The notes under the pieces: generated by a model
The model's input: only the letters and a program-made list of their open reading frames with translations
Told to the model about the DNA's origin: nothing
Databases searched by the model: none
In this document: in pieces, positions 1 to 59,226 of the stretch
Layout: each line of letters starts with the position of its first letter
Position numbering within the stretch: the first letter of the stretch is position 1
Made by a program: the position numbers and the translations under genes
Source of the DNA: Patescibacteria group bacterium
GTDB lineage: Bacteria > Patescibacteriota > CPR2 > UBA1875 > CAIMLA01
Direction: 5' to 3'
Length of the DNA: 64,000 nt
Assembly: GCA_041738615.1 (NCBI GenBank)
Contig: JBGSPL010000003.1
Span: 114,352 to 178,351 of the forward strand

Positions 1-102
1 CAAAACAAACGAAAACACCCCGTCGAGTGCAATCTGGATGTTTTGCTCCCTTTTCTTTTCTGGCCAAAAATGAGGAATCTTATCTATCACCAAATGGGAC
101 AT
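1..102 (-). CDS. Hypothetical protein, N-terminal fragment (gene continues beyond window start)
   Basis: ATG at 102 on minus strand, open to window edge (MSHLVIDKIPHFWPEKKREQ...); not in ORF track because truncated. Confidence 0.3.
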   Translation of the reverse strand, partial: MSHLVIDKIPHFWPEKKREQNIQIALDGVFSFVL

Positions 103-185
103 GACGCCTACTATAAAAGCCAAAAATGGGTTTGGAATAAACCGTCCAATTGCGGCACCTACAGATGTGTGGGTTACGCCCGTCA

Positions 186-938
186 CTAGAGCTGCTCCAT
201 AATACTTTCGGGAATGTCGTAATTGGAGTAAACAGTAGTTACGTCCTCAATGTCCTCGATGGCATCGATAAGCCTCAGGATTTTCCTTGCCGTTTCAACA
301 TCGGTAACTTTTGCTTCATTTTTTGGCTTATAGACAATCTCATCGTCAGAAATAATGATTTTTGAGCTTGCGAGAGCCTCTTTCACTTTCTGAAAATTTA
401 CTACTTTTGTATAAATTATGTATTCATTATCTGTCTCTTCGAAGTCATCAGCGCCAGATTCCAGGATAGCCATCTCAATTTCATCGGCAGATAGTATCTG
501 TCCCTCCCGAGGAACGACTATCTCACCTTTCTTCTCAAATTGGAATGCAACAGAGCCCGTTTCGGCCATATTACCACCTAGCTTCGAGAATACCGCGCGA
601 ACCTCTGGACCTGTACGATTTCTGTTATCTGTAAGCGCCTCGATAAGAACCGCCACACCTGCTTGAGCATAACCCTCATATAGTAACTCCTCCGGTGCAG
701 CTCCCCCAAGCTCTCCTGTCCCCTTTTTGATCGCACGTTCGATGTTTACCGAAGGCATATTTACCATCTTCGCCTTATCTATGGCGAGTCTTAGAGAAAA
801 GTTTGTCTTCGGATCACCGCCACCCTGCTTCGCGGCGATGGTAATGTTTGCAGCCGCCTTGGTAAACTCTTTGCCTTTCTTGGCATCTGTAGCTGCTTTC
901 TTGTGTTTGATACTAGCCCACTTACTGTGTCCGCTCAT
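186..938 (-). CDS. yebC: YebC/PmpR family DNA-binding transcriptional regulator
   Basis: 250 aa; MSGHSKWASIKHKK... N-terminus and overall YebC family pattern. Confidence 0.9.
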   Translation of the reverse strand: MSGHSKWASIKHKKAATDAKKGKEFTKAAANITIAAKQGGGDPKTNFSLRLAIDKAKMVNMPSVNIERAIKKGTGELGGAAPEELLYEGYAQAGVAVLIEALTDNRNRTGPEVRAVFSKLGGNMAETGSVAFQFEKKGEIVVPREGQILSADEIEMAILESGADDFEETDNEYIIYTKVVNFQKVKEALASSKIIISDDEIVYKPKNEAKVTDVETARKILRLIDAIEDIEDVTTVYSNYDIPESIMEQL

Positions 939-1063
939 TTAGGCTCCTCTCTATCTCGTCAATGGTGTTCGTTACAACCAGATTATACTCTTTTTGTGCC
1001 TAGAATTGAAGGCGGCGCTTACCCCATGGGGTAAGCGCCGACCAGACAGAGAGAAATGAGTGA

Positions 1064-1348
1064 TTAGAGCCCGCGAGCTTGTTTGCGTCCCTCGCAGTGT
1101 TCATGCGGCGCCAGGTAGACGCCGTCGGCCTGTCTGCGAAAGTGAAGGAGAACCCCACAATCTGGGCACGGGGCCGTCTGTGGGACAGTATCCTGGCACT
1201 GGCACCCCATAATCATTCTTACGGTATTTTTGGCACGAGGATGAGCAAGCGCCCCGTTCCCCTTAAAACATGCTTCCAGTACGACCGGTGTCTGACACTT
1301 CGTGCATGCTATATCAATGGCATTACTCGGTGTGCTGACGTCACCCAT
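1064..1348 (-). CDS. Island A Cys-rich hypothetical protein (94 aa from MGDVST)
   Basis: GC-rich ORF; AAGGAG RBS 7 nt upstream of ATG at 1348; CxxC...CPDC...HEHC pattern suggests metal binding. Confidence 0.45.
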   Translation of the reverse strand: MGDVSTPSNAIDIACTKCQTPVVLEACFKGNGALAHPRAKNTVRMIMGCQCQDTVPQTAPCPDCGVLLHFRRQADGVYLAPHEHCEGRKQARGL

Positions 1349-1440
1349 CTCTAGCTCCTTCGGTTGTGGTACTCGACAATTCATCTGTCGCGAATGTTCT
1401 TGGTCGGGCTGGCAAGGGATCGACCTTACCAGCCCGGAAT

Positions 1441-1466
1441 AAAAAAACCTCGCCGGAAAGCGAGGT
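1441..1466 (-). terminator. Rho-independent terminator (CCTCGCTTTCCGGCGAGG + T7 on minus strand)
   Basis: Perfect 6-bp stem hairpin followed by TTTTTTT on minus strand, downstream of island A gene 1711..1929. Confidence 0.6.
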
Positions 1467-1710
1467 GATCTTCTACATTGTGCTAAAACAACTAAAACTC
1501 CGCTTTCCTGCTCGTGGTAGTAAAGAAAAAAGGGAACGGGCGAAATGTATTTGTTGTTTGCATGTGAAATATCTTAGCCAACTTGAGCTTAAATGTCAAT
1601 AAAGCGAACGGCGCACCGTCCAAGCCTGCCCTGTAGGGCACTTATCAACCTCAACGTATGTTCATACGTATCTCGATTGGCTTGGTCTGGTGCGCTCGTG
1701 TTCGCGAGAG

Positions 1711-1929
1711 CTACATAGCAGGTACGGGCTTCACTTCCACCCGGAGCCCTTCTTTCGTGGGACGGCCTTCCAGGATGTTGCGCCTGACGTACAAGGCGTT
1801 CAGGTTCTCCCTGATCCGAGCCGCTTTCCTTGAGCGCTCCGGAAGACCCTCGAGCTTACCTTCGAGGCACTTGATTTCCTCGCATACCTCAGCGAGTTCC
1901 GCCATATTGGCGTCCGTACCATTCGGCAT
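1711..1929 (-). CDS. Island A hypothetical protein (72 aa from MPNGTD)
   Basis: GC-rich ORF; RBS GAGGGGAGG 5 nt upstream of ATG at 1929; coiled-coil-like composition. Confidence 0.45.
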   Translation of the reverse strand: MPNGTDANMAELAEVCEEIKCLEGKLEGLPERSRKAARIRENLNALYVRRNILEGRPTKEGLRVEVKPVPAM

Positions 1930-1940
1930 GGTTCCTCCCC

Positions 1941-2141
1941 TCATGCTGGGACGTTTGGTCCCGAGCACCTCGTTGTGATCCAAACACCTGCCTGCTGATC
2001 CGCGACTACCTGAAGCTTGCCCCCTAACTCAGAAGTGTAAGCTGTATAGCCCATCTTACGACAGGCCGCTACGGCCTTCTCCAGATCTTCGCGGCTCACC
2101 CCTTCTGGCGCCGGCATTGTCGTCGGCTCACTACTCGCCAT
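1941..2141 (-). CDS. Island A hypothetical protein (66 aa)
   Basis: GC-rich ORF; RBS AGAGGGGGGG 3 nt before ATG; stop 12 nt before next gene start, operon-like. Confidence 0.45.
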   Translation of the reverse strand: MASSEPTTMPAPEGVSREDLEKAVAACRKMGYTAYTSELGGKLQVVADQQAGVWITTRCSGPNVPA

Positions 2142-2206
2142 ACCCCCCCTCTTTCTCTCGCGGTTTCTGTATGTACCCGGGCGAGGTCCACCCGCATTAA
2201 CCTCAG

Positions 2207-2277
2207 CGGGGACGGCAGGATTCGAACCTGCACTCTACGGATGTTATCCGCTTGCCTACCAATATGGCCGCATCCCC
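2207..2277 (-). tRNA. tRNA gene, 71 nt, best-fit anticodon AAC (Val) - atypical
   Basis: Minus-strand GGGGATG...GGTTCGAATCC...CGTCCCC: 7-bp acceptor, T-arm GCAGG/TTCGAAT/CCTGC, D-loop with GG, anticodon loop AUAACAU with U33 and A37. A34 is unusual for bacteria; isotype needs tRNAscan. Confidence 0.6.
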
Positions 2278-2285
2278 ATAGAATC

Positions 2286-2309
2286 AAAAAACCTCACCGC
2301 TTGGTGAGG
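2286..2309 (-). terminator. Rho-independent terminator (CCTCACCAAGCGGTGAGG + TTTTTT on minus)
   Basis: 7-bp perfect stem followed by T6 on minus strand, just upstream (5') of the tRNA. Confidence 0.55.
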
Positions 2310-2476
2310 CCTACACGTGATTAGATGCTCCTACTCTTCTACCCGGACCTCATCAACCACAACCTCACCATAGCTACGGAGAATAGCTAGGACCACTACG
2401 AGGACGAGAATAAATGTGGTTGTTACGATTAACATGGCTATATGGTAGTAAATTTCCGCTCAGCCGTCAATAGAAA

Positions 2477-3349
2477 TTATTTAACTTTCTTTACTTCGTT
2501 TTGCCCTATCTCGAAGCTAACCGTCCCTTCTTGATCGGTCCGAAAGACCTGTATACCAGAAAGCGCAGCTAGCGCCTTTGTAGTTGGATGGCCAAACTTG
2601 TTATCCTTCCCGACCTCTATCACCGCAAACTTTGAATTCACTGCCTTTAGAAAATCAACACTTACCGAATCCTTGCTCCCGTGATGTGGGACTTTATAGA
2701 GTGAGCTGCGTATCTCTTGTCCAGACGCTAACAGCTGGCCCTGAGCCTCAGCTTCGAGGTCTCCCATAAAGAGGGCCGACTCACCCCCATAGCTCAGCTT
2801 AGTCACGACCGAGCTGTTGTTGATGTTGTCCATACTCGTTCCGGAAACTTCACTCAAAGGGAAAAGGAAACTGATCCCAACACCCGCTCCCAGGTCTAGC
2901 TTATCCCCTGCCTTTACGGCCTTCGTGCTCACATTCTTTGATTTCAGCAAACTCAAAAACTCCAAATACTCATCCGTAGAATAAGTAACTCCGCTAATAT
3001 ACGCCGTCTTGACCTGGTATTTCTTCAGTACCGAGACGAGTCCTGCCACGTGGTCTGCATGAGGATGGGTAAGGACTATTGCGTCAATCCTGCGACTATA
3101 GAAAGGAATGAACTTATCAAGCTCAACAAGAACACTGTCATCGGGACCGCCATCTATAAGCACATTCTGATGGCTCGGAGTCTGGATAAGCTCGGCGTCA
3201 CCCTGTCCCACAGATAAGAAATGTACAAATAGCCCGTTTTCGGTAGGTTTTACATCCGCTGACCAAACCGCAAAGACTAGCAAGGTCAATATAGCCAAAG
3301 CAAGAGTGTTACCAAGTATCTTTCTGATGTATTGCCATATGGCTCTCAT
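2477..3349 (-). CDS. ComEC-related metallo-beta-lactamase fold protein with N-terminal TM anchor
   Basis: 290 aa; HPHADHVAG..., GDLEA..., PHHGS MBL motifs as in ComEC/Rec2 C-terminal domain. Confidence 0.75.
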   Translation of the reverse strand: MRAIWQYIRKILGNTLALAILTLLVFAVWSADVKPTENGLFVHFLSVGQGDAELIQTPSHQNVLIDGGPDDSVLVELDKFIPFYSRRIDAIVLTHPHADHVAGLVSVLKKYQVKTAYISGVTYSTDEYLEFLSLLKSKNVSTKAVKAGDKLDLGAGVGISFLFPLSEVSGTSMDNINNSSVVTKLSYGGESALFMGDLEAEAQGQLLASGQEIRSSLYKVPHHGSKDSVSVDFLKAVNSKFAVIEVGKDNKFGHPTTKALAALSGIQVFRTDQEGTVSFEIGQNEVKKVK

Positions 3350-3506
3350 AACACAATTATATTACTTATCTTAAACCTTTACAGGTATACACTTTTTTGT
3401 TAATATACTTCACATGCAAACCGCAACGAACAACATGAAGAAATGCTGGAAGAAGGCTCGCCTCACGGAGAGTGTGCTTTAGGTTTGTAGATTTACTTTA
3501 CCTATC

Positions 3507-3534
3507 AGCTCTCCGCTAAGGAGAGCTTTTTTTA
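3507..3534 (+). terminator. Orphan plus-oriented hairpin+T7 (AGCTCTCCgctaaGGAGAGCT TTTTTTT)
   Basis: Perfect 8-bp stem + T7; no plus-strand gene immediately upstream. Confidence 0.35.
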
Positions 3535-3619
3535 TGGAAATTTCGGGGGGAATCCTGAAGTATCCACCAATACAAGATGGGCTGAGAAGCTCGCGTACCA
3601 CGAAAACGAGGAGGCACTG

Positions 3620-3820
3620 ATGAGCGCGAATACTCCGGGCGACATGCCAAGGAAGAGCCAGATCCGTGTAGGTTTTGGGAACGTGGAAACGACAGGGGGA
3701 CACATCGGAAGCACCGTCGTCCATCACTCCACCCAGAACACCGACGCCGAACTCGAGCGAATCCCGTCTATCGAACCGAAGAGTCCAAGCCTCGGGGCCT
3801 TGTTCCCCGAAGTCGACTGA
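3620..3820 (+). CDS. Island B hypothetical protein (66 aa)
   Basis: GC-rich; RBS GAGGAGGCACTG-ATG. Confidence 0.4.
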   Translation: MSANTPGDMPRKSQIRVGFGNVETTGGHIGSTVVHHSTQNTDAELERIPSIEPKSPSLGALFPEVD

Positions 3821-3829
3821 GGAGGCACC

Positions 3830-4084
3830 ATGAGTACGGACGGAAGAGATTGGACCCTAGTGCCTGGGTTGCCACTTTGCGTAAATCCAGTAGGACTCCA
3901 GGTAGCTCGTATGTCTGCGGGCTTTACTCAGGAGTCGCTCGTTGGGCCGTGCCCGCTCAGGGGATCTATCCTGATCTACGGCCAGAGTTGCCGTTGTGGC
4001 GTCGCTGACGTCATTGGATGCGGCTACCTTGTTCACCAGGCAGAACCCGCCCTGGCCTCCATCCCGCTCGCCCCTAATCTCTAG
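3830..4084 (+). CDS. Island B hypothetical protein (84 aa)
   Basis: GC-rich; RBS GAGGAGGCACC-ATG nearly identical to the upstream gene's RBS; stop lies in terminator hairpin. Confidence 0.4.
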   Translation: MSTDGRDWTLVPGLPLCVNPVGLQVARMSAGFTQESLVGPCPLRGSILIYGQSCRCGVADVIGCGYLVHQAEPALASIPLAPNL

Positions 4085-4105
4085 GGGCGGGCGGGCGCCC
4101 TTTTT
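4070..4105 (+). terminator. Double-hairpin Rho-independent terminator of island B (GCCCCTAatctcTAGGGGC + GGGCGGGCGCCC TTTTT)
   Basis: Two GC-rich stems followed by T5; the palindromic CTAG supplies stop codons on both strands. Confidence 0.65.
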
Positions 4106-5523
4106 CCAAAAAACAACCAGATGTCCAATATGAAGATATACGCAAGGAGAATCCACCACGGGTTCTCTATTTTGTATGCCGCGCTCGCCCAGCCCACGCT
4201 TCCGGACCACGTGATAACAGCGTTTATAAAGTGCAATATATAAAAGGTGGGCACTGCCAGAAATGTCCCCAGCGGTTGCCAAAGTATCCCCACTATTCCC
4301 ATCGCAAATGTCATTGCCATAGCCAGCGGGACTAGCGCCAAGATTACAACATTTGTTAGTGGCGCTATCACCGATACAATACCAAAGTAGTAGGAAAGGA
4401 GCGGCAATGTAGCGATCTGAGCCCCGAGGGTCTCGGAAAAAAGTGCCACATAACCTCCGCCAGCTCTTTCGAATAGGTTTTCTATTGTCGGTCCTATGTA
4501 CACGATACCTGCGAATGCAACAAAAGAGAGTTGGAAACCGACATCAAAGAGCGGCAGAAATGGATTAAACACAGCCATCATTGTCGCTGAAAACAAAATC
4601 GAGATAAAATTATCACTTTCCCGCCCGAGGTATGATGCGAGTAATGGTAAAGAACCCATGAGCGCCGCGCGCACCAAACTTGGTGCGCCACCAGTCATTA
4701 AAACAAAAATTAGAATCAAGGAAACAGGGAGTATCAGCTTCATCCGACGTGACATTTTGTTTCTAATCAGCAAAAAAGCCCCCATCAGGATAGTGATGTT
4801 ATAACCCGAGAGCGCAATAATGTGCGTGGTTCCGCTCACTTGCAGTGCCCTGACCATCTCAGGGCTCACGAGCGCCTTTTCTCCCATGATTATTCCGCTC
4901 CCCAAGCCAGCCTCGGCTGAGGGCAAGAGTCGTGAGATTGATTCGTTTAGCGCCTGCCGAAATGAGAGAAGAATGCCCCTGGCACCAACAAACACGCCTT
5001 CGCTCTGACCCGAACTCTCATATTTGGAGACAGACACCTCTCCAAGGAGTCCGTTGCTAATCATTCGCCATCGTGTCTCTTCTTTGTAGCCGGTGATTTT
5101 GGTCTCCAGCTCCAGCAATTCGCCATACTTCGGGGCTGTTCCGCTGTTTATATAACCTGTAAGTTTCGAGCCCACAAGGTCAGATTCTCCTGACACGACG
5201 ACCAAACGTACCTTATCACCATGAAGTGCCTTCTGGGGCAAATCATCTACTCGCGCCGTGAAGTGAAGATTATTACCGGAATACATGGAGTTAAGTTCGA
5301 TCAACCTAGAAGCAACGGCCTGGAAATGCCAAAGGGAAAGTAAGAACAGCCCTAAGCCGAATATTGTTCCAAATAAATACGGTTTCTTCAAAAATAGAAA
5401 AGACAATGCGATTAAGGTTCCCGCCAACGCGAGGTAGCCAGCAAGATAAATAGGTAGCACGAAACCCGCGAAACATCCCGCCAGATAGCAAAATAGCCAA
5501 ATTAGCAGTACTTTTGCCTTCAT
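4081..5523 (-). CDS. comEC: ComEC/Rec2 family competence protein, N-terminal DUF4131 + competence (membrane channel) domains, no MBL domain
   Basis: 480 aa, many TM segments, ...HIIALSGYNITIL... competence-domain pattern; C-terminal codons (RAPARP*) run into the island B terminator hairpin. Confidence 0.8.
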   Translation of the reverse strand: MKAKVLLIWLFCYLAGCFAGFVLPIYLAGYLALAGTLIALSFLFLKKPYLFGTIFGLGLFLLSLWHFQAVASRLIELNSMYSGNNLHFTARVDDLPQKALHGDKVRLVVVSGESDLVGSKLTGYINSGTAPKYGELLELETKITGYKEETRWRMISNGLLGEVSVSKYESSGQSEGVFVGARGILLSFRQALNESISRLLPSAEAGLGSGIIMGEKALVSPEMVRALQVSGTTHIIALSGYNITILMGAFLLIRNKMSRRMKLILPVSLILIFVLMTGGAPSLVRAALMGSLPLLASYLGRESDNFISILFSATMMAVFNPFLPLFDVGFQLSFVAFAGIVYIGPTIENLFERAGGGYVALFSETLGAQIATLPLLSYYFGIVSVIAPLTNVVILALVPLAMAMTFAMGIVGILWQPLGTFLAVPTFYILHFINAVITWSGSVGWASAAYKIENPWWILLAYIFILDIWLFFGKRAPARP

Positions 5524-5536
5524 AAGGGTATTTTAC

Positions 5537-5565
5537 TTGAAAAATATTCATTCTCATAATATAAT
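5537..5565 (+). promoter_or_regulatory. sigma70-like promoter TTGAAA-N17-TATAAT driving island C
   Basis: -35 TTGAAA 5537-5542, 17-nt spacer, -10 TATAAT 5560-5565. Confidence 0.5.
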
Positions 5566-5629
5566 TCCCGAGACGGAGGGCACGAGTAATCGTGTCCTCA
5601 AATCGTAGTTCCCGACCAAGGGAGGTCGC

Positions 5630-6236
5630 TGTGAGCAAAACAACCGCAGCCCAAGAGGACACTCGCATTACCCCCGAAAAGCACGTCTACTTCGACGACT
5701 GGAACAAGACCAGCCTTCGCCTCGGCAAGCTCGCCCGAGTCCTTGGCTGGGGCAGCCCGACGAAGGGTGATGGTGCTTTCAGCTCCGGCCAGGCAATCCA
5801 ATTTCAGCGGGTCACGGTCATCCTGCCGAGCGACGGTTCCAAGCCGTTCTACCTCGGCAACATCGAGATGGATGGACCGGCCGTCAAGGTCAACACTCTC
5901 TTGGCAAAGGGGTTGATCGACCAGCAGACGGCAGACGCTATCAATGCCGAGGTCGAGCTCGCGAAGGCAGCACGCATCACACGTCGCAAGCAGACCGAGA
6001 AGGCAAGGGAGAACTTCTCCTCGGCAGAGGGCAGGCTCCGTCAAGCACTGGCAGAGGTCGATCAGGCGGATCGCTTGGTTCACAAGCTTTCACGTGACCG
6101 GAAGAAGCCCATCACTGAAGTCGACGTCGCGCGCAAGGCCTACTTCAAAGCACAGGACAAAGAGAAGCGTGCGCGGCGCCATCGCGACAGGCTCTCTGAG
6201 CTGCGCATGGTAGGTCGAATTTCTCTGCCCCTCTAG
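5630..6236 (+). CDS. Island C hypothetical protein (~202 aa from GTG)
   Basis: GC-rich; RBS AAGGGAGG 5618-5625 then GTG 5630; basic/coiled-coil C-terminus; leader contains 8-bp stem GNRA-tetraloop hairpin (5578-5597). Confidence 0.5.
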
Positions 6237-6257
6237 CCCATGCCCCGTTGGGGCAAC

Positions 6258-6316
6258 GTGAAACCCTTGGTGTAACGACCAAGATCTCCGTTGCACCAAC
6301 GGGGTTTCACTTTATT
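6258..6316 (+). terminator. Long hairpin terminator of island C (GTGAAACCC...GGGGTTTCAC + TTTATT)
   Basis: ~22-bp imperfect stem then T-rich tract. Confidence 0.6.
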
Positions 6317-6321
6317 AGCAA

Positions 6322-6345
6322 AATAACCCCACGAGTGGGGTTATT
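6322..6345. terminator. Bidirectional hairpin AATAACCCCACGAGTGGGGTTATT between convergent genes
   Basis: Perfect stem flanked by A/T runs on both sides. Confidence 0.5.
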
Positions 6346-6359
6346 TATAAGAGTCCAAA

Positions 6360-6818
6360 CTAAACTGTAAATATTTTGAATACTGAGAATAAAACAGAGA
6401 GTAAGGTTACCACAACTATGCCGACTAGAAACATAGCACCGATAGTCTTCCAACCTAGATTATTGTAACCCTTGGCTAAATCTGGTAGCGTTTTTCGAAG
6501 ACTGTAGTAATACACAGCCTGTCCGATCAACGGATTTAGGGTCATGATTGCGACTGCCTTTGCATTAGCTACTTCTGTTCTAGCTATCTCGGGGTTTTTC
6601 TTAATCTTGTCTACATCCATGAGTGCTAGTACAAAACCAATACCTACAAGTACCCAACTAGCTGCTGGTATAAAACTATTTACTAGGTTCGCAACGACTA
6701 CAATACCCGCGATTATAAATAAATACTTCCATTTAAAAACTTTGAGCGTAATTTTTTCAGTTGAAGCTACTGGTGCCACCGGTGCCACTTCTGGTTTACC
6801 CATTTCTACGTCTGTCAT
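6360..6818 (-). CDS. Hypothetical membrane protein
   Basis: 152 aa, 3-4 hydrophobic helices. Confidence 0.5.
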   Translation of the reverse strand: MTDVEMGKPEVAPVAPVASTEKITLKVFKWKYLFIIAGIVVVANLVNSFIPAASWVLVGIGFVLALMDVDKIKKNPEIARTEVANAKAVAIMTLNPLIGQAVYYYSLRKTLPDLAKGYNNLGWKTIGAMFLVGIVVVTLLSVLFSVFKIFTV

Positions 6819-6841
6819 CTTTCTCCTTTATTTATCCGTTA

Positions 6842-7480
6842 CTAATTATATCTAAACCCAAAGTTCCAAACAACTATTCCTATAAAGATTAAAATTATGA
6901 TAAACATGAACAAACCAACTTTCCATCTAATTGGTTTGTTTTCATTCTGATGACTTACCATTACTAGCTGATTACCATTTAAGAACTTCTGCAAAGTATC
7001 GCCGACGGATATTTGCTTATTGGCAGAAAGAACATTCAAAATTGTATTTCGTAGTGTTTTCTCCTTTAGAAAGATAAAGTCGGCTTGATCTACTAAATAT
7101 TTCATCCCATCATCCATGGTAATCTCTAGATAACGCAGCGGTATTAGCGTAAGCAAGAAAAGCAGATTATCAAATACAAAGACATCGTTGTTAAATACGC
7201 TCAGAAAGTTCATGGATTTAATCTCTGAAATATTTATAGTATTTGCTCCTATCGGACCACCAAGTTCTAGACTGTTACCCTTAAGCGCAAAGGTATACCT
7301 TCTCAAAGAATACGACACTACAAATATACCCATGATTCCCAAGAAAATCAGTCCAAAGTGAGGAATCAATTCGGTTAATTGTTGAGAGAATAATTGCTTA
7401 GCAGTCCAATTTAGTAGATAAAAGACAAATAATAGTCGAATAAATACTATTTCGAGACTTAAAACTTTTCTTTTTTGCAT
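6842..7480 (-). CDS. Hypothetical membrane protein
   Basis: 212 aa, hydrophobic N- and C-terminal segments, very AT-rich. Confidence 0.5.
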   Translation of the reverse strand: MQKRKVLSLEIVFIRLLFVFYLLNWTAKQLFSQQLTELIPHFGLIFLGIMGIFVVSYSLRRYTFALKGNSLELGGPIGANTINISEIKSMNFLSVFNNDVFVFDNLLFLLTLIPLRYLEITMDDGMKYLVDQADFIFLKEKTLRNTILNVLSANKQISVGDTLQKFLNGNQLVMVSHQNENKPIRWKVGLFMFIIILIFIGIVVWNFGFRYN

Positions 7481-7536
7481 AGGAATAATATATAATAATT
7501 ATGCAATTGAGTAAATACTAAGAACAAAGAAATAGG

Positions 7537-8343
7537 GTGCGACTTATGGATACTCCAGAAAATATAGAAAGCAAGATACCAACATCAGTAGAGAAAAAGA
7601 ATTTTCTTGATACCTTAAGGCAGCACAAATTGGCTACGGCATTGGTATCAATTTTTTCCTTGTTGCTTCTTATATTCTTATTGGCAATTAACACAAAAGA
7701 TCAGGCAAGCGCCAACGCCAAAGAGGAATTAGCAAAATACTTAAATGATAAATACAAAGAAAGTTTTGATACAATTGACTACATTACTTATAGCAACGAA
7801 GGTAGCGCAGACTCTTGGGAAAAGATACTTGTAGTAAACCCAGCTAACGACAAATCTGTAGTTTTTGATGCTACGAAAACTTCTGAAGGAATTACTGACA
7901 GCTATCGATTATCAAGATGGTCAAAAGAACTAACAGGTAGACTGCGGGCTCAGGTAGAAGGCCTATTTAATTCAGAGACAGTTGTAAAAATATACCCAAC
8001 GGCAGATCGCACCTCCAGCCTACCGAAGGATTTTTCGTTTTATGATAACAACGTTACCACCGTTTATTTAGTAGGTGTAAAAACTTTAGGCTCAATAAAT
8101 TTTAGCGACTATCGTGAGTCAGTGTTTAAGCTCTATCAGCTTGCACGAAGTAACGGTGGGCAATTCGATATCAGTGTCCAGTTTGTTAGCTCCCTAGACA
8201 ACTTGACAAATGATGTTGAATATCGTAACGTGAATAGCCGCTACAATCGGTCTACTAATGGCGTAAACGCTCGTATAAATGTTGGTTCGCTTGAGAATAT
8301 AACAACGGCTAAAGATCTAGACAAGTATTTCGTTTCAAACTAA
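7537..8343 (+). CDS. Hypothetical membrane-anchored/secreted protein
   Basis: 268 aa, single N-terminal TM then hydrophilic Ser/Asn-rich domain. Confidence 0.55.
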   Translation: MRLMDTPENIESKIPTSVEKKNFLDTLRQHKLATALVSIFSLLLLIFLLAINTKDQASANAKEELAKYLNDKYKESFDTIDYITYSNEGSADSWEKILVVNPANDKSVVFDATKTSEGITDSYRLSRWSKELTGRLRAQVEGLFNSETVVKIYPTADRTSSLPKDFSFYDNNVTTVYLVGVKTLGSINFSDYRESVFKLYQLARSNGGQFDISVQFVSSLDNLTNDVEYRNVNSRYNRSTNGVNARINVGSLENITTAKDLDKYFVSN

Positions 8344-8411
8344 AGAAATGATTTCTTACTGATATCAAAGAATCCCCCATTTCTGGGGGATTCTCTTAAA
8401 TAGATGTACTA

Positions 8412-9423: not shown

Positions 9424-9468
9424 ACGTTTCTCCTTCCTATAAAATATACGCTAAATCCTATACAAAAA

Positions 9469-9506
9469 CAAAAATGAGGCATCCAACAAGTTGGAAACCT
9501 CATTTT
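9469..9506 (-). terminator. Hairpin AAAAATGAGGcatccaacaagttggaaaCCTCATTTTT following tRNA-fMet
   Basis: 10-bp stem flanked by A5/T5; reverse complement copy at 10319-10358. Confidence 0.55.
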
Positions 9507-9581
9507 TGGTAGCGGGGGTAGGATTCGAACCCACGACCTTCGGGTTATGAGCCCGACGAGCTGCCACTGCTCCACCCCGCG
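9507..9581 (-). tRNA. Initiator tRNA-fMet (CAT)
   Basis: CGCGGGGTGGAGCAG...TCGGGCTCATAACCCGA (three G:C pairs in anticodon stem)...GGTTCGAATCC...ACCA; closely resembles canonical bacterial initiator tRNA. Confidence 0.85.
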
Positions 9582-9632
9582 TTATTAACAAACATAATTT
9601 TAGCAGTATTTGTGCTTAAAGTCAAGGCTGGA

Positions 9633-10028
9633 CTAGCCCTTAAAGAAGAACTTCAACCATTTCTCGGGACCAGAAAGCTTGTCATAAGGATCTTTTTCAG
9701 CCACTTTCTTGGTATCTTCTGGCAAGATAACTATCACCTTTTCACCTGGTTTCTGCAAACCCAGACGTTCTCTTGCTATCCGTTCCTGATAAGACGAGCT
9801 CTGGTAGTAGATGATCTTCTCAGAGAGGTCCTTATTTGCAAGCCTCATGGTCTCAATTTCGTTTTTGAGGCCATTGATCTCTTGTCTCACCTGATAGCTC
9901 TGGTAAAGGGTCTTCCCGACAACAAACAGTAAGTAAAGAATGGAGACGACTATAACGATGCGAATGAGGAAGTTATCTTTGTTCATATCTACATTATAGC
10001 AAGCAAGTATCTCGTTGACTATAAGCAC
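9633..10028 (-). CDS. FtsB/DivIC-like septum formation initiator (single TM + coiled coil); start uncertain (GTG 10028 or ATG 9986)
   Basis: TM helix then coiled coil QEINGLKNEIETMRLANKDLSEKIIYYQ... Confidence 0.5.
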   Translation of the reverse strand: MLIVNEILACYNVDMNKDNFLIRIVIVVSILYLLFVVGKTLYQSYQVRQEINGLKNEIETMRLANKDLSEKIIYYQSSSYQERIARERLGLQKPGEKVIVILPEDTKKVAEKDPYDKLSGPEKWLKFFFKG

Positions 10029-10139
10029 GATTTTCGGTATAATACCTATGTTTCAAAGTTTTCTCGACACGTTTAAGATTACCAGAAACGGCAACGGGCC
10101 GCTAAGTTTTAGCGGCTAAAAAAATCCCATATTTCATCG

Positions 10140-10215
10140 GGGCCTGTAGCTCAGTTGGTAGAGCAATTGCCTTTTAAGCAACTGGTCGCGCGTTCGAGTC
10201 GCGCCGGGCCCACCA
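10140..10215 (+). tRNA. tRNA-Lys (TTT)
   Basis: GGGCCTGTAGCTCAGTTGGTAGAGC...anticodon loop CTTTTAA...GTTCGAGTC...CCA. Confidence 0.85.
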
Positions 10216-10243
10216 GATATTTATTCCGATTCGTTCATGACGT

Positions 10244-10318
10244 GGCTGCGTAGCTCAGGGGTAGAGCAGCAGACTCATAAGCTGTTGGTCGGTGGTTCAA
10301 ATCCACCCGCAGCCACCA
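10244..10318 (+). tRNA. tRNA-Met (CAT), elongator-type
   Basis: GGCTGCGTAGCTCAGGGGTAGAGC...anticodon loop CTCATAA...GGTTCAAATCC...CCA. Confidence 0.85.
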
Positions 10319-10358
10319 AAAATGAGGTTTCCAACTTGTTGGATGCCTCATTTTTGTT
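10319..10358 (+). terminator. Hairpin terminator after tRNA-Met; inverted copy of the 9469-9506 element
   Basis: AAAAATGAGGtttccaacttgttggatgCCTCATTTTT. Confidence 0.55.
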
Positions 10359-10367
10359 TAGAAAATG

Positions 10368-12627: not shown

Positions 12628-12887
12628 TTCACTTCTCCACTCAGTACGTCATTTACGCTATCTAGGGTCTTTTTATCTAAATACCTAGTAATCTCTACGT
12701 TGCATTCGCTCACTAGCTTCGCCAAGGCATCTATGTCATTACCAACTACCTGCGCAAGCTTCTTGGCATCATTAATGATCTCTTCTGCTACCTCTGGGTA
12801 CTCGTGCTCCAGGGTGCGAATGATTTTGTACAAATTATCGAATGGCATCACGTTCGTATCGGTCATATTTCCTCTTTCTGGGTACAT
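12624..12887 (-). CDS. Hypothetical protein
   Basis: 87 aa; 4-nt overlap with downstream ORF. Confidence 0.45.
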   Translation of the reverse strand: MYPERGNMTDTNVMPFDNLYKIIRTLEHEYPEVAEEIINDAKKLAQVVGNDIDALAKLVSECNVEITRYLDKKTLDSVNDVLSGEVK

Positions 12888-12913
12888 TATATACCAAGCT
12901 ATAAATATCGTAA

Positions 12914-12983
12914 AACGCGAAAGGACCGGAGTCCCAGCTCGCGTTGCACCGAAGTGCTAGCGAACCGGAACCCGGTCCTCGTT
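12914..12983 (-). repeat. 70-nt structured repeat element copy 1 (terminator-like, 3' of island D gene D1); identical to 13754-13823
   Basis: 100% identical 70 nt; on minus strand forms GGACCGG...CCGGTCC outer stem with inner GCAC-UUCG-GUGC hairpin, followed by TTTCGCGTTTTA. Confidence 0.8.
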
Positions 12984-13025
12984 GTGCTTTTACCCTTGCG
13001 GGTCAGGCTGCACGCCTGTGTGGAG

Positions 13026-13568
13026 CTAGAAGCTCTTGAGCTTCTTCTGGAGATCTTTGATTGCGTTGAGGGTCTCCGTGTCCTCGCCCTCGTTGTCGCC
13101 GATGTTCTCGGCGCTGACAACGTACTTGGCCAAACGGTTGATACGTGTCTCGATGGCTTTGCGGGGAAGGTCCCGCCCTTCGACCATGTCGTAGAGCATC
13201 GGGATGACGTTGTCACCGAGATTGCCGTACGCGTAGCCTTGGGCATCCTTGCCCGTGAGACGATCTTCGTAATCCTTCATGGCGTCGTCGAAGTTCACGA
13301 GCAATTGCTTCGGGTTGGCTACCAAGTTCAACTGGTAGAGCTGGTCGTCCTGCTTGACGATCTCCTCCTGGAGAGCGTCGGCGCGCTCGGACTGGGCGTC
13401 GAGTTGCTCCTGAACGGACTTGTACTCGGCCTGGAGCTTCGCGAGTTCCTTACCCTGCTGGATAGCGACCTGGGCCGTCGTCTCGCTCTTGGCCTGCATC
13501 TTGAAAGCAGTGCCGAAGGCGAGTACGAGCAATGCACAGACAACTATCAACGCAAAGATCTTCCTCAT
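13026..13568 (-). CDS. Island D gene D1: secreted coiled-coil hypothetical protein (180 aa from MRKIF)
   Basis: GC-rich; signal peptide MRKIFALIVVCALLVLAFG; RBS GAGAGGGGA 7 nt before ATG. Confidence 0.5.
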   Translation of the reverse strand: MRKIFALIVVCALLVLAFGTAFKMQAKSETTAQVAIQQGKELAKLQAEYKSVQEQLDAQSERADALQEEIVKQDDQLYQLNLVANPKQLLVNFDDAMKDYEDRLTGKDAQGYAYGNLGDNVIPMLYDMVEGRDLPRKAIETRINRLAKYVVSAENIGDNEGEDTETLNAIKDLQKKLKSF

Positions 13569-13709
13569 TTGAGATCCCCTCTCATCGAGCCCCATCGGGG
13601 CCTATTCCACTTGTTTTCGCCGGCGGCGACAGCTGATCACGATGTTCGTGAGCAATTGTCGCCGTGGCGATAGATTCAAGGTGCAATTCTTGATTTCTCA
13701 AGACAGACT

Positions 13710-13737
13710 ATATTAACATACTTGTTTGTTTTGTCAA
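13710..13737 (-). promoter_or_regulatory. sigma70-like promoter TTGACA-N16-TAATAT for D1
   Basis: Perfect -35 hexamer on minus strand in AT-rich linker. Confidence 0.5.
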
Positions 13738-13753
13738 GTGTTTTCTACGCTAT

Positions 13754-13823
13754 AACGCGAAAGGACCGGAGTCCCAGCTCGCGTTGCACCGAAGTGCTAG
13801 CGAACCGGAACCCGGTCCTCGTT
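13754..13823 (-). repeat. 70-nt structured repeat element copy 2 (3' of island D gene D2)
   Basis: Identical to 12914-12983; about 25 nt downstream of D2 stop. Confidence 0.8.
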
Positions 13824-13846
13824 TGTGGTCGCACTCTTGCGACCTG

Positions 13847-14155
13847 CTACCCCCGCTGGAAACCCTGGAAGACGTCCTGAAGCGGACCAGGCACGTTCTG
13901 CAACGAACCGCCTGCGCGGCAGAACTTGGCAGCGTAGTTCGTGACGGTCTCGACGTCGTTGACGTCGCAATCCAGAGGAACACTGCCGATGGTGTCAAGG
14001 TTGCGCTCGAGCTGCTCAAAGGCAACATTCACCGGAATTCCGCCGTGCGGGACGTACTGGAAGCCGTTCTCGGTCATGATCTTGAAGACCGCGCCCATAA
14101 GGGCAAGAACCTTCAACTCATGACGTTCCGTGCCAACCTGCTGATCGCGTGCCAT
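13847..14155 (-). CDS. Island D gene D2 hypothetical protein (102 aa from MARDQQ)
   Basis: GC-rich; AAGGAG RBS 7 nt before ATG 14155. Confidence 0.45.
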   Translation of the reverse strand: MARDQQVGTERHELKVLALMGAVFKIMTENGFQYVPHGGIPVNVAFEQLERNLDTIGSVPLDCDVNDVETVTNYAAKFCRAGGSLQNVPGPLQDVFQGFQRG

Positions 14156-14171
14156 TGTTCGCTCCTTCGTG

Positions 14172-14489
14172 TTAGAGTGTCGCCTCGAGGGCGGCGCGTA
14201 CCTGATAGAGCTTCTTCTGGTTGCGCTGGCCGATCGGGCTGTGCGGGTCGATAACGAAAACCGACTTGACCACCTTGACGATCGGGCTGTCCGCTGAACC
14301 GGCATGGACCTTGGCCGTGAACTTCACGACTTCGGACTTGGCCGGTGCGGCCACGACATCAGGCAACTTCGGGAGATGACCCCGGTTGCTGCCCTTGACG
14401 ATCGGCGCCTTGGTGGCACCTCTGCGAGGCGTGTTGCCACGACGTTCGCGAGCACGCTTGACCTTCTTGGACTCGGTAGGCTTTCCCAC
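14172..14489 (-). CDS. Island D gene D3: small basic hypothetical protein (105 aa, GTG start)
   Basis: Lys/Arg-rich N-terminus; RBS GAGGGGAG 6 nt before GTG. Confidence 0.45.
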   Translation of the reverse strand: MGKPTESKKVKRARERRGNTPRRGATKAPIVKGSNRGHLPKLPDVVAAPAKSEVVKFTAKVHAGSADSPIVKVVKSVFVIDPHSPIGQRNQKKLYQVRAALEATL

Positions 14490-14530
14490 GGTAGCTCCCC
14501 TCGTCTTGTCCCTCAGGGACAGCTGACGTA

Positions 14531-14908
14531 CTAGGACGTCTCGTCGATATAGCGAGCGAGCGTCCAGGTGATGGACAGCTCATCGTGCGCCCCATTGTTC
14601 GTGACCTGCTCAACCTTACCGATCTTCCAACCGGCGTTGAGTGAGAACAGGACCGCGAGCTCCTCGTCAGCACGAAGCAAACGACGAACCTCCTGGACGG
14701 TCTTTCCCGAGAGACCCTCACCGGTATTGATCGTAATCGACCGGTAGTAGGGATCTATAATGCTGGTTGCCTGATAGGGGCGCTGATAGCACTCCTTCAT
14801 CCCACAACCAACAGCGACCGCCAGCGCGACGGCTACCCGATCTTTAACGCCGATGTAAATTTCGTCGACGTCACTAACCACGCTTGCAAGCTCGTCCTTA
14901 TCCAACAT
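14531..14908 (-). CDS. Island D gene D4 hypothetical protein (125 aa from MLDKDEL)
   Basis: RBS GAAAGGAAAC; start placed downstream of leader palindrome; ORF track start (14971) lies inside the palindrome. Confidence 0.45.
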   Translation of the reverse strand: MLDKDELASVVSDVDEIYIGVKDRVAVALAVAVGCGMKECYQRPYQATSIIDPYYRSITINTGEGLSGKTVQEVRRLLRADEELAVLFSLNAGWKIGKVEQVTNNGAHDELSITWTLARYIDETS

Positions 14909-14937
14909 GTCTTGTTTCCTTTCGGAATAGTATGGGC

Positions 14938-14989
14938 ATTGTTTACTGCAAACTATAGACACTATGGTCAACAGTTTGCAGTAAACAAT
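14938..14989. promoter_or_regulatory. Perfect 17-bp inverted repeat ATTGTTTACTGCAAACT-N18-AGTTTGCAGTAAACAAT in D4 leader (operator or RNA hairpin)
   Basis: Each arm is itself a near-palindrome (GTTTAC-T-GCAAAC); lies between promoter at 15025-15053 and the RBS. Confidence 0.6.
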
Positions 14990-15024
14990 AAGTAAAGTTA
15001 CATTTCGCTCTCACGAAACGTTAT

Positions 15025-15053
15025 ATTCTAGCATTTATATCATGTTTTGTCAA
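15025..15053 (-). promoter_or_regulatory. sigma70-like promoter TTGACA-N17-TAGAAT for D4-D3-D2 operon
   Basis: Consensus -35, 17-nt spacer, 5/6 -10, AT-rich linker inside GC-rich island. Confidence 0.55.
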
Positions 15054-15132
15054 TACTACATATGCATAGCGGGCAAGCCCGAATGCATGTGGTATGCAAA
15101 CGGACTCGCCCGCGCGGCTAGTAGCTGGACTG

Positions 15133-15702
15133 CTAGTAGTATTCCTTGGCGGCGTCGTTGAAGCCATCCGCCTCGAGACTGTTGATCATCTGATCGTAGT
15201 CCTTGGTGGCGCTGGGCCAGATATCGGACTTCTTGTACCCCGCCTTCTTGAGGACCTTGAGGACCTTGACGAGCTTGTCGTACTTGCGCCACGCCGCTCG
15301 CCCCTCGATGTTTCCAGGGTACCAGTTCATGAAGCGCGCCACGACTGCCCTCCACCGCCACTCGGGGTGCTCCTTGCGTCCCTCGACGATTCGGATGGTC
15401 GCGTCGAGCGCCATCAGGTAGTGCTCGTCCTCGATGGTGACCTCCCCGCCGTTGGCTTCGCTCCACGCCATGTGGTCGAGAAACTGGCTGATCGGCTCCC
15501 CGGGATACCTGCCGTGAGGTTCAGGCATCGGAGGCGGTTCCTCGGAATCTGCTGCTGCCTGAGCGGCATCTACCGCACTCGTTGCTTCAGGCAAGAAACG
15601 TTGAGTGCGATCAATACTCTTGTTGCACGAACGGATGTAGATGGCGACACCCCCAAGCAAAACCAGTACCAAGATGACGACATGAACCGTACGCAACCGC
15701 AT
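15133..15702 (-). CDS. Island D gene D5: membrane-anchored hypothetical protein (189 aa)
   Basis: N-terminal TM; RBS CAGAGGGGTAGG 6 nt before ATG. Confidence 0.5.
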   Translation of the reverse strand: MRLRTVHVVILVLVLLGGVAIYIRSCNKSIDRTQRFLPEATSAVDAAQAAADSEEPPPMPEPHGRYPGEPISQFLDHMAWSEANGGEVTIEDEHYLMALDATIRIVEGRKEHPEWRWRAVVARFMNWYPGNIEGRAAWRKYDKLVKVLKVLKKAGYKKSDIWPSATKDYDQMINSLEADGFNDAAKEYY

Positions 15703-15742
15703 GAGTTACCTACCCCTCTGAGCCGCAGCTCGGTCAAAATTG

Positions 15743-15796
15743 ATTTTCCTCAACACCCAAGGGACGATGAGTCGCCCACTGCGTGCTGAGGAAAAT
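15743..15796 (-). promoter_or_regulatory. Imperfect inverted repeat (TTTTCCTCAAC...GCTGAGGAAAA) in D5 5' leader
   Basis: 11-bp arms with 1 mismatch, 33-nt spacer. Confidence 0.35.
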
Positions 15797-26063: not shown

Positions 26064-26091
26064 GGCCGGCGCTCCATGCGGAGCGCCGGCC
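26064..26091. terminator. GC-rich perfect hairpin GGCCGGCGCTCC-ATGC-GGAGCGCCGGCC between convergent hydA and island E gene
   Basis: 12-bp perfect stem; overlaps stop of 26091..26702. Confidence 0.55.
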
Positions 26092-26702
26092 TATAGTCCC
26101 AGTGCCTCTTTTGCCTTCTCGGTCCCGTGCCTCAGCCGTGGGGCCTGGAAGTAGTCGATAACGTCGATTCCCGCCATCTTGTTGGGCAACCCAGCAGAGA
26201 GCTGATTGCCGAGAATCTGAGCACTCATTCCGCCGTCTTCTACCCAAATCAGGGCTGCCAGGTGGGCGTACGGCGTCCCGACTTGCTTCCCGTAAGGAAC
26301 CAGTCCGCGAAGCTCCACGTTTGCGTCGCCGTTATCGTAGTAGTACTTACCGCCGACCATCGAGAGCGGTACCAGCGTGTGTGCGAACGCCTGCACCTGT
26401 CTTGGAAGCTCGGCACCAATCGTTGTTTCGATGGTGTCGAATTTGCCAGTATGCCCCGTCCCCGAGAAATGAAGCAGCAATGAACGCTGGTCTATCTTCC
26501 CCGAGGTTTGCCGTGCCGTCGCCGCGAGATCCATGAGACCATCGAGACTTGTAGCCAGCACACCGAAGGCTTCGAAGAAATCGTCCGACTTGTCACGGTC
26601 TAGCAGCTCTACGGCCTTCATCATGGGACCGTACGCGCCGCCGCAGCTAGCCAGAAGTTCTCTAGCGAGACCCTTGTCGTTAGGGTTCATTTCCAGGTTC
26701 AT
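26091..26702 (-). CDS. Island E GC-rich hypothetical protein (203 aa) appended to hypC operon
   Basis: High GC; RBS AGGAGG 7 nt before ATG, start 12 nt after hypC stop. Confidence 0.5.
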   Translation of the reverse strand: MNLEMNPNDKGLARELLASCGGAYGPMMKAVELLDRDKSDDFFEAFGVLATSLDGLMDLAATARQTSGKIDQRSLLLHFSGTGHTGKFDTIETTIGAELPRQVQAFAHTLVPLSMVGGKYYYDNGDANVELRGLVPYGKQVGTPYAHLAALIWVEDGGMSAQILGNQLSAGLPNKMAGIDVIDYFQAPRLRHGTEKAKEALGL

Positions 26703-35049: not shown

Positions 35050-36635
<1,586 letters not shown>

Positions 36636-44331: not shown

Positions 44332-44437
44332 AGCGACAAGCCGAGGAGGCGAGACGGAGTTGAGAGGTGTACCGTTCTTTTATCAAGACTTGGTTTCGCC
44401 AGCCGGCGAACAGGGTCCCGGAAAGGGGGCGAAAGGT

Positions 44438-46615: not shown

Positions 46616-46633
46616 CGCCACAGGCGCTAGAAC

Positions 46634-46690
46634 CAAGGGGCTACCTGCACAGCACTCGAGAGAGTGGCTGCCTGCTGGTAGCCCTCTTTC
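46634..46690 (+). terminator. Long-hairpin terminator copy 1 (GGGGCTACC...GGTAGCCC CTCTTTC) after F1
   Basis: ~85% identical to 47312-47367. Confidence 0.6.
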
Positions 46691-46700
46691 TTTACCTATA

Positions 46701-46736
46701 TATAGCCTTTACACGAAGGCTATATTGTGGTACAAT
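46701..46736 (+). promoter_or_regulatory. Promoter TTTACA-N17-TACAAT for F2 with overlapping 9-bp inverted repeat TATAGCCTT-N6-AAGGCTATA
   Basis: IR 46701-46724 overlaps -35 (46708-46713); -10 at 46731-46736. Confidence 0.5.
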
Positions 46737-46782
46737 ACTGCACGAAACTATGTACCTGTCAGCAACCGACCAAGGGGGATCC

Positions 46783-49439: not shown

Positions 49440-49562
49440 GATGTCGACGAGGGTGGCCCAATCGGTGGGCACCGCATCTACATCTGAGGGAGTAATGTCG
49501 ACCGACTCACTGTCGACAGTGACACTATCCTGTGGGCTCTTGTCATCGGCGGCCATGTGGTT
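49440..49562 (-). CDS. Island G micro-ORF (40 aa, acidic)
   Basis: Perfect AAGGAGG RBS 11 nt before ATG; downstream of G1 in same orientation; short, so tentative. Confidence 0.3.
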
Positions 49563-49586
49563 ACCTGCCTCCTTGGTGGAAAGTGG

Positions 49587-59216: not shown

Positions 59217-59226
59217 GGTGGTTCAA

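Follow-up and report, generated by a model that had tools for sequence, protein, structure and literature searches.

A putative tRNA-Val with anticodon AAC in an accessory islet of Saccharibacteria

Between the yebC gene and a metallo-beta-lactamase gene (MBL, ComEC-C-like) of a Patescibacteria group bacterium (assembly GCA_041738615.1, contig JBGSPL010000003.1) lies a small islet encoding three orphan proteins, here called A3, A2 and A1, and upstream of A3 a 71-nucleotide (nt) tRNA with the anticodon AAC. All four are read from the minus strand of the 64,000-nt stretch that we analyzed (positions 114,352 to 178,351 of the contig; "the window" below). The tRNA is preceded by a valine-rich open reading frame (ORF) of 34 amino acids (aa) and an intrinsic terminator, and a phenylalanine-rich leader ORF, a further terminator and a tRNA-like hairpin ending in ACCA stand in the same order ahead of A1 (Table 1). 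An earlier annotation of this DNA, made without database searches (the original prediction), had taken the arrangement for an island inserted at the 3' end of a tRNA. Here we consider what kind of RNA this tRNA is, how it relates to the islet and how the locus might be expressed.

The tRNA gene and its orthologues

ARAGORN predicted a tRNA-Val(aac) at 2206-2277(-), and the Rfam model RF00005 matched 2207-2277(-) end to end (model positions 1-71) with 39.5 bits and E = 7.7e-05 for the whole window, a full-length cloverleaf above the gathering score of 29 bits. Both tools agree with the original prediction, which had read a 71-nt minus-strand tRNA with anticodon AAC and had named ARAGORN and covariance scores as the check. 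The Rfam-aligned anticodon loop, A32 U33 A34 A35 C36 A37 U38, contains the proper U33 and A37 that it had described, and the core retains G18 G19 and the T-loop UUCRA.

Several features set this tRNA apart from the other five in the window, which reach 63-78 bits and without exception possess U8, A14 and an encoded CCA. It has the lowest score of the six, carries C8, U14 and G73, contains A13.A22 and A27.A43 mismatches and a D stem of 3 base pairs (bp) plus an A.A, and has CUG after the discriminator in place of an encoded CCA. A scan for sigma-70-like consensus sites upstream of A3 found no promoter-like site specific to the tRNA. The identity rules of E. coli ValRS are A35 and C36 in the anticodon and A73 as discriminator. 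A35 and C36 are kept in all three orthologues that we identified (the window copy and those of loci L017 and L028, introduced below), and A73 is found in L017 and L028, with G73 in the window. A tRNA with inosine at position 34 would be expected to have a loop like that of the TadA substrate tRNA-Arg(ACG), U33 A34 C35 G36, or else a TadA of broadened specificity in its lineage; the window loop reads U33 A34 A35 C36. Codon usage gave no argument either way on a need for Val-AAC; our tRNA and gene inventory of the carrier genome covers the 64-kb window only.

For comparison we used two Candidatus Saccharibacteria metagenome-assembled genomes, L001 and L002, whose MBL proteins are 81% and 61% identical to that of the window, and further loci found through the context of yebC homologues (L017/L018/L019, L020, L021/L022, L023-L026, L027, L028 and L029). 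Species relations were taken from yebC identities and a rough neighbor-joining tree of this single protein. The slot holds no tRNA in L002 or in L001, the closest relative (yebC 97% identical), and from these two genomes alone the tRNA had looked like an insertion specific to the window, a view overturned by orthologues in L017, L019 and L028. In L017 and L019, from two JGI samples, this slot, immediately behind the small-ORF terminator, is occupied by a tRNA-Val(AAC) (48.3 bits with RF00005), and in L028 by a tRNA-Val(UAC) (53.1 bits).

Our assessment of covariation rests on three sequences, those of the window, L017 and L028. In their alignment, double compensatory changes occur at 4-69 (G-C to A-U), 49-65 (G-C to A-U) and the tertiary pair 15-48 (A-U to G-C); pair 6-67 has a one-sided change, and no pair is broken. 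Of the cells, 90.9% are paired; sliding the partners gives 53% at most. All three lack an encoded CCA and have U at position 14, and the anticodon stem is the same in each, the A27.A43 mismatch included; the whole anticodon arm of the window tRNA is that of L017. The AAC loop (AUAACAU) and the UAC loop (UUUACAG) differ at positions 32, 34 and 38 only, with U33, A35, C36 and A37 kept. Because the changes are compensatory, the pairs unbroken and the valine anticodon kept, the family does not appear to be one of pseudogenes; the pattern indicates structural constraint, under which the predicted L-shaped fold and valine anticodon identity have been kept.

The window copy itself might be a relic in decay, on its way to becoming a pseudogene, with the islet tRNA-Val still functional in other species. 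All three of its specific substitutions (U8 to C8, A73 to G73 and U6-A67 to U6.G67) are unfavorable, compared with six of six L017-specific substitutions that are compensatory, and at positions 8 and 73 both L017 and L028 show the canonical U and A. Its Rfam score is the lowest of the three, and the sister genome L001 has no tRNA at all. Given the three unfavorable changes and the loss in L001, the window copy is possibly under relaxed constraint. Even so, all its stems are paired, its T-loop, G18 G19, U33 and A37 are intact, its anticodon arm is shared with L017, and three changes are too few to separate relaxed selection from altered specificity; we consider a relic quite unlikely. The original prediction had suggested an island-borne, pseudo or specialized tRNA. 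The first and last of these agree with the shared islet slot in L017/L019 and L028 and with the compensatory changes, whereas "pseudo" finds no support for the family and could apply at most to the window copy, with its C8, G73, lowest score and loss in L001.

Table 1. Features of the islet and of a second islet (B) in the window. UTR, untranslated region; z, comparison with shuffled sequences.
Feature	Positions	Strand	Remarks
Sigma-70-like promoter of the Val-rich small ORF: TTGACG, 17 nt, TACCAT	2442..2470	-	Sole promoter-like site upstream of the tRNA and A3-A2
34-aa hydrophobic ORF, 10 Val, MLIVTTTFILVLVVVLAILRSYGEVVVDEVRVEE	2331..2435	-	88-97% identical in L001, L002
Intrinsic terminator (stem 2312-2289 plus U-run) and competing antiterminator (predicted)	2289..2370	-	Minimum free energy -30.6 kcal/mol; antiterminator fold z = -2.8
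Putative non-canonical tRNA-Val, anticodon AAC	2207..2277	-	Starts 8 nt past the terminator U-run; ARAGORN and Rfam
A3 5' UTR: hairpin, GGGTACA motif, GAGGGG ribosome-binding site	2142..2206	-	83-86% identical to L001
A3, 66-aa orphan protein	1941..2141	-	Strong purifying selection
A2, 72-aa orphan protein, rich in charged residues	1711..1929	-	L002 homologue, 49% identity
Structured non-coding element	1602..1710	-	94-95% identical to L001, above any neighboring gene; z = -4.7
Promoter TTGACA, 17 nt, TAAGAT	1571..1599	-	-10 hexamer ends 7 nt before the leader ATG
Phe-rich leader ORF MQTTNTFRPFPFFFTTTSRKAEF	1492..1563	-	FFF run and RKAEF end kept in five species
Intrinsic terminator of the Phe-leader transcript	1440..1466	-	5' half can pair instead with the leader ORF end
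13-bp acceptor/T-arm-like hairpin CGGGCUGG-UAAGG, loop UCGAUC, then ACCA	1401..1436	-	Stem 1436-1405, ACCA 1404-1401; 4 nt past the U-run
A1, 94-aa Cys-rich probable zinc-ribbon orphan protein	1064..1348	-	CxxC...CxC...CxxC...HxHC pattern
Perfect 14+14 palindrome	1013..1040		Between the A1 stop codon and the yebC promoter region
Islet B promoter TTTACA, 17 nt, TAATAT, then 22-aa ORF starting MQT		+	
Islet B terminator	3507-3527	+	
Islet B degenerate hairpin plus ACCAA	3536-3565	+	Then GCGTACC motif, ribosome-binding site
Islet B ORFs	3620-3820 and 3830-4084	+	

Origin of the islet and its cargo

The A1-A3 genes have a GC content of 0.56-0.59, against 0.45 for yebC and 0.47 for MBL. The GC-rich three-gene islet of the original prediction is therefore real at the level of its ORFs but not uniform, since positions 1437-1601, which hold a promoter, the Phe-rich leader ORF and its terminator, have a GC content of 0.39. 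Of the further details given there, GAGGGG-type ribosome-binding sites precede A3 and A2 but not A1, which has GAAGGAG, and the islet does lie on the 3' side of the tRNA, although A3 starts 65 nt beyond the tRNA 3' end and not immediately at it.

That account had seen in this layout the classic geometry of island insertion, without an integrase. The missing integrase was confirmed: none, nor any other recombinase, lies within 1-6000, and the only recombinase of the window is at 35050-36603. A direct repeat of the tRNA 3' end, to be sought near position 1000, occurs neither in 900-2400 nor anywhere else in the 64 kb at up to 3 mismatches. Orthologous loci, which had also been named as a check, speak against a tRNA target as well. 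In L020, L021/L022 and L029, ComEC, MBL, a small hydrophobic ORF and yebC are present, with neither a tRNA nor this islet at the junction; the gap between MBL and yebC is only ~200 nt in L020 and L021/L022, and in L029 it is ~1 kb and holds a different leader-terminator-ORF module ahead of the small ORF. Since the islet-free relatives have no tRNA at the junction, the tRNA was not there beforehand as an insertion target. Classical integration of the islet at the 3' end of a resident tRNA-Val, with later loss of the integrase, would fit its position on the 3' side of the tRNA and its GC content unlike that of the flanks. We nevertheless hold it to be very improbable, given the absence of an att-type repeat, of an integrase and of the tRNA from islet-free sites, and because this tRNA does not share the U8, A14 and CCA of the resident tRNAs and its slot alternates between a tRNA and a hairpin element (described below).

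A GC-rich islet lies between the small ORF and yebC in the window, L001, L002, L017, L027 and L028, where cargo GC content is 0.50-0.60 against 0.42-0.49 in the flanks. Nucleotide identity between the window and L001 is 0.87 for A3, 0.84 for yebC, 0.73 for MBL and 0.65 for A1, and by this measure the islet appears as diverged as its flanks, and old. The comparisons point to the tRNA as a component of an old accessory locus in one Saccharibacteria clade, not an integration target, and to a tRNA that is apparently dispensable, being absent from L001 and L002.

The cargo genes form a mosaic across species. A3 differs from its L001 counterpart by 27 nt, 24 of them at codon position 3 and with a single aa change, which argues for a real gene inherited with its neighbors. 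A2 is shared by the window and L002; L001, which lacks it, has an unrelated ORF in its place, as do L017 and L028, and an AIAERICDD-type ORF occurs in these same three. L017 has three unique ORFs and an unrelated protein in the A1 slot. None of A1, A2 and A3 has a Pfam match above the curated cut-offs or a PHROGs match, and PADLOC returned a single marginal match, to A2 (E = 0.054). No homologues of A1 or A3 outside the window genome and L001 were found among 5.8 billion protein clusters; a profile search with A1 against 1.84 billion representatives gave 5 matches. The Cys-rich character that the original prediction gave A1 is borne out by its residue pattern (Table 1), and the AlphaFold model of this protein was unusable (pLDDT 47).

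Leader modules and tRNA-like hairpins

The consensus scan found no sigma-70-like site between the first terminator (2312-2289) and A3, downstream of the Val-rich small ORF, whose Val count across species is 8-10. Codons 22-29 of this ORF (GGUGAGGUUGUGGUUGAUG) are predicted to form an antiterminator by pairing with the spacer and the 5' half of the terminator (GGUGAGG...GAUG with the spacer plus CCUCACC). With the whole terminator included, the antiterminator is the minimum-energy fold in three of six species (window, L001 and L017). We propose that the 34-aa ORF doubles as a leader ORF.

In the second module the distance from the -10 hexamer to the ATG implies that the mRNA of the Phe leader is leaderless or nearly so. 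The FFF-run ORF is 21-27 aa long in five species. Two alternative pairings are predicted, of the Phe codons (UUUUUCUUU) with AGGAAAGCGG and of GGAAAGCG with the terminator 5' half, CGCUUUCC. By prediction both modules thus combine the elements of an attenuator, namely an ORF with an amino-acid run, a terminator and a mutually exclusive antiterminator at the ORF 3' end. Between A2 and the second promoter, the structured element at 1602-1710(-) consists of a closing stem with two hairpins; it is also present in L028, has no Rfam match, and is replaced by a different structured sequence in L002, L017 and L027. Taken together, the locus appears to comprise two paralogous modules, each with a promoter, leader ORF, terminator/antiterminator, tRNA or ACCA-ending hairpin, second hairpin and ribosome-binding site.

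Further modules with a promoter, leader ORF and terminator lie at L027:560-720 (MKRNNLQQNLLLLALNTDGEVLIY) and L029:3800-3965 (MKQTFTNSLNLVLVLDIYGEVLN), in each of which the 3' half of the terminator recurs in the G-E-V codons (GGCGAGG). These modules suggest that the design is a paralogous family across Saccharibacteria. The window contains a second GC-rich islet of the same module design, islet B at 3378-4084(+), which separates ComEC (4081-5523) from its MBL domain gene. Over 31 nt, the promoter and 5' end of islet B (3396-3426) show 81% similarity with the A1 leader (1551-1581). ComEC and MBL are adjacent in L021 and L029, both of which lack the islet on the yebC side, and L020 has a 174-aa ORF between them.

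In the window, L001, L017, L027 and L023-L026, the gene in the A1 slot is preceded by a hairpin-ACCA element, which lies 4 nt past the terminator U-run. Its compensatory changes are many (one pair is C-G in the window, U.G in L001 and U-A in L017), and its stem is wholly different in L023-L026; a hairpin of this type occurred in 1 of 20 shuffles of the window. The helix is 1 bp longer than the acceptor/T-arm stack of a tRNA (13 versus 12 bp) and has no canonical T-loop. We rejected a dispersed repeat, as the window has one perfect and one degenerate copy only, the latter in islet B and with an orthologue in L017. In the tRNA slot itself, L002 has a fully paired 13-bp hairpin (CGGCUCAG-GUAGG, loop UCCAAUC, then ACCA), and L001 a decayed version of it. 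The A1-slot hairpin and UTR are 94% identical between the window and L001, against 65% for the A1 coding region. The putative non-coding scaffold is in this sense more conserved than the genes it is predicted to drive, which points to exchange of cargo by recombination within the scaffold.

These hairpins raise the possibility that the tRNA is mainly a cis-acting processing or stability module, at which a cut by RNase P (and RNase Z) would separate or stabilize the downstream cargo mRNA after read-through. Its anticodon would then not matter, and the change from UAC to AAC could be simple drift. Such a role would suit the hairpin and decayed remnant in the L002 and L001 slots, the hairpin-ACCA in the equivalent place of the second module in multiple species, ahead of the second hairpin and ribosome-binding site, the degenerate copy in islet B, the conservation of hairpin and UTR over A1 coding sequence, and a tRNA with neither its own promoter-like site nor an encoded CCA. 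A pure signal of this kind would have no use for a conserved anticodon stem, U33, A35, C36 and A37, G18 G19 or a covarying 15-48 pair, and the hairpins imitate a tRNA imperfectly, with a helix of 13 bp, not 12, and a T-like loop of 6-7 nt that lacks U55. We regard both a mainly processing role and free drift of the anticodon as somewhat unlikely.

On balance we lean, with moderate confidence, toward 2207-2277(-) being a genuine, structurally constrained, non-canonical tRNA-Val gene that belongs to an old accessory locus and was not an integration target. Our best guess is that the RNA decodes valine codons. The tRNA and A3-A2 would be made together, only when transcription reads through the terminator. 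An early ribosome stall in the Val-rich leader ORF would be expected to bring about such read-through by letting the antiterminator form, and stalling in the leader ORF of the second module would likewise allow its cargo to be expressed. The AAC anticodon may have been derived from UAC by the changes at 32, 34 and 38, with A35 and C36 kept. The resulting Val-tRNA, accessory and dispensable, would read GUU and, were A34 deaminated, GUC and GUA as well. The window copy, with C8, G73 and U6.G67, would be under relaxed or altered constraint.

Several points weigh against this reading. The comparison includes only three tRNA orthologues, of which a single one, L017, accounts for all of the double changes. 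With C8 and U14 the window copy departs from features that are near-universal among tRNAs, it has G73 where its orthologues and the E. coli ValRS rules have A73, and the encoded CCA of the window's five other tRNAs is missing. Because the slot appears to hold just an acceptor/T-arm-like hairpin in L002 and a decayed remnant in L001, what the slot needs may not involve an anticodon. In L028 and L002 the minimum-energy fold predicted for the full region is the terminator and not the antiterminator. The small ORF also occurs in species without the islet, and hence is probably a real small protein, not purely a leader.

The modules also invite a more speculative proposal, to which we give little credence: a modular platform, confined to one Saccharibacteria lineage, in which a translated Val- or Phe-rich leader ORF gates read-through into a cognate-type tRNA or an ACCA-ending mimic of its top half, which the exchangeable GC-rich orphan cargo would require for processing or sensing. 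This would be the first attenuator-controlled tRNA gene, and its UAC/AAC polymorphism in the anticodon loop might be driven by conflict, for example by escape from a nuclease that targets tRNAs.

Known systems, the wider window and significance

Anticodons of the ANN type other than ACG account for 695 of 246,393 predicted bacterial tRNAs, with every ANN type occurring sporadically (bioRxiv 10.64898/2026.05.15.725136). The original prediction that A34 is essentially unknown in bacterial tRNA-Val was thus roughly right. Retained ANN tRNAs comprise Leu-AAG in Lactobacillales, Oenococcus and Streptococcus and Thr-AGU in Mollicutes, where they replace the GNN isoacceptor in AT-rich (60-70% AT) Firmicutes/Tenericutes (bioRxiv 10.64898/2026.05.15.725136). 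The islet tRNA resembles the sporadic A34 tRNAs in having an A-starting anticodon for a four-codon box, in its presence in at least two species and in its apparent origin from a neighboring anticodon. Unlike the retained ones, it is a Val-AAC in a genome of ~48% GC that seems to derive from, or alternate with, UAC, is dispensable in close relatives, sits in an accessory locus, and has a non-canonical core (U14, a D stem of 3 bp plus A.A, and the A27.A43 mismatch).

Phage tRNAs with anticodon-loop mutations evade host anticodon nucleases (eLife 2023, PMC10264068). Like the accessory tRNAs of phages and mobile elements, the islet tRNA is an extra, non-essential one amid fast-changing orphan genes, with variation centered on loop positions 32, 34 and 38 and identity kept. 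The islet differs in that it has no phage genes or recombinase, is chromosomal and syntenic across species, and has no nuclease identified among its cargo. A blastn search of INPHARED with the islet tRNA gave generic T-arm matches only and pattern scans of IMG/VR gave unrelated tRNAs or nothing, so that a phage or mobile origin finds no support in these scans. The exact acceptor and T-arm pattern was not found in JGI metagenomes, where it proved too strict, as L017, itself a JGI contig, differs in those stems.

The proposed control resembles ribosome-mediated attenuation, known from pheA/pheST, with a Phe run, and from ilvGMEDA/ilvBN, with Val/Ile/Leu-rich leaders. As in these leader-peptide attenuators, a short ORF with codons for one amino acid precedes a terminator whose 5' half can, by prediction, pair alternatively with the ORF 3' end. 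In contrast to them, the genes controlled would be orphan small proteins and a tRNA, not biosynthesis operons or synthetases, the leader mRNAs are apparently leaderless, and a tRNA-like hairpin follows each terminator. To our knowledge Saccharibacteria would not be expected to synthesize the amino acids concerned, and we know of no described attenuator that gates a tRNA and orphan genes; a literature search for such an attenuator in Saccharibacteria found nothing.

The islet can also be set beside tRNA punctuation and tRNA-like signals, as in mitochondrial transcripts, plant t-elements and the mascRNA of MALAT1. It shares with these a tRNA or acceptor/T-arm structure that separates segments of a transcript and might be cut by RNase P or RNase Z, and departs from them in the 13-bp hairpin with its encoded ACCA. 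We are not aware of tRNA punctuation having been described for bacterial accessory loci. With tRNA-targeted genomic islands the locus has in common a position 3' of a tRNA gene and a GC content unlike the flanks, and it differs from them in the lack of an integrase and att repeat, in the absence of the tRNA from the unoccupied site and in being as diverged as its flanks.

Elsewhere in the window, the recombinase noted above is a serine recombinase (Resolvase N-terminal domain, 517 aa) whose 3' end overlaps a minus-strand tRNA-Met(CAT) at 36560-36635, beside tilS. It borders a lower-GC stretch at ~31-36.6 kb (mostly 0.34-0.45), and this is the window's real recombinase-beside-tRNA geometry. At 9466-10359, two inverted tRNA-Met(CAT) genes in 115-nt inverted repeats (78% complementary) flank a tRNA-Lys; the copy that matches L001 at 98.8% is oppositely oriented, suggesting an inversion or rearrangement. 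Eight GC-rich islets were identified (1064-2141, 3540-4084, 5592-6236, 12804-15789, 26091-26702, 44360-47304, 49557-50207 and 59059-59661), their ORFs interspersed among housekeeping genes (dnaK, ATP synthase, lepA). None of the GC-rich ORFs tested in them has a Pfam match above the curated cut-offs, a 751-aa ORF included, and some of the long ones may be artefacts of low stop-codon density. The largest islet (12804-15789), with 0 ORFs that match Pfam, contains a 73-nt direct repeat (12911-12983 and 13751-13823, 99% identical, 840 nt apart). A ~2.8-kb segment at 5526-8361 is absent from L001 and L002; it comprises a GC-rich 214-aa orphan ORF (5592-6236) with a CCCGACCAAGGGAGG motif in its UTR, and three AT-rich genes (GC content 0.33-0.39) without Pfam matches.

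Anticodons starting with A, other than ACG, are almost absent from bacteria, for reasons that are debated. The cross-species retention of Val-AAC in a Saccharibacteria accessory locus is new, and a Val-AAC kept with compensatory changes, with a UAC sister allele in the same slot, offers a natural pair for testing the tolerance of unmodified or deaminated A34. The islet also offers defined RNA elements that are testable in genetically tractable Saccharibacteria. Its recurring design may be a general way for reduced, host-dependent bacteria to switch on accessory genes under translation stress.

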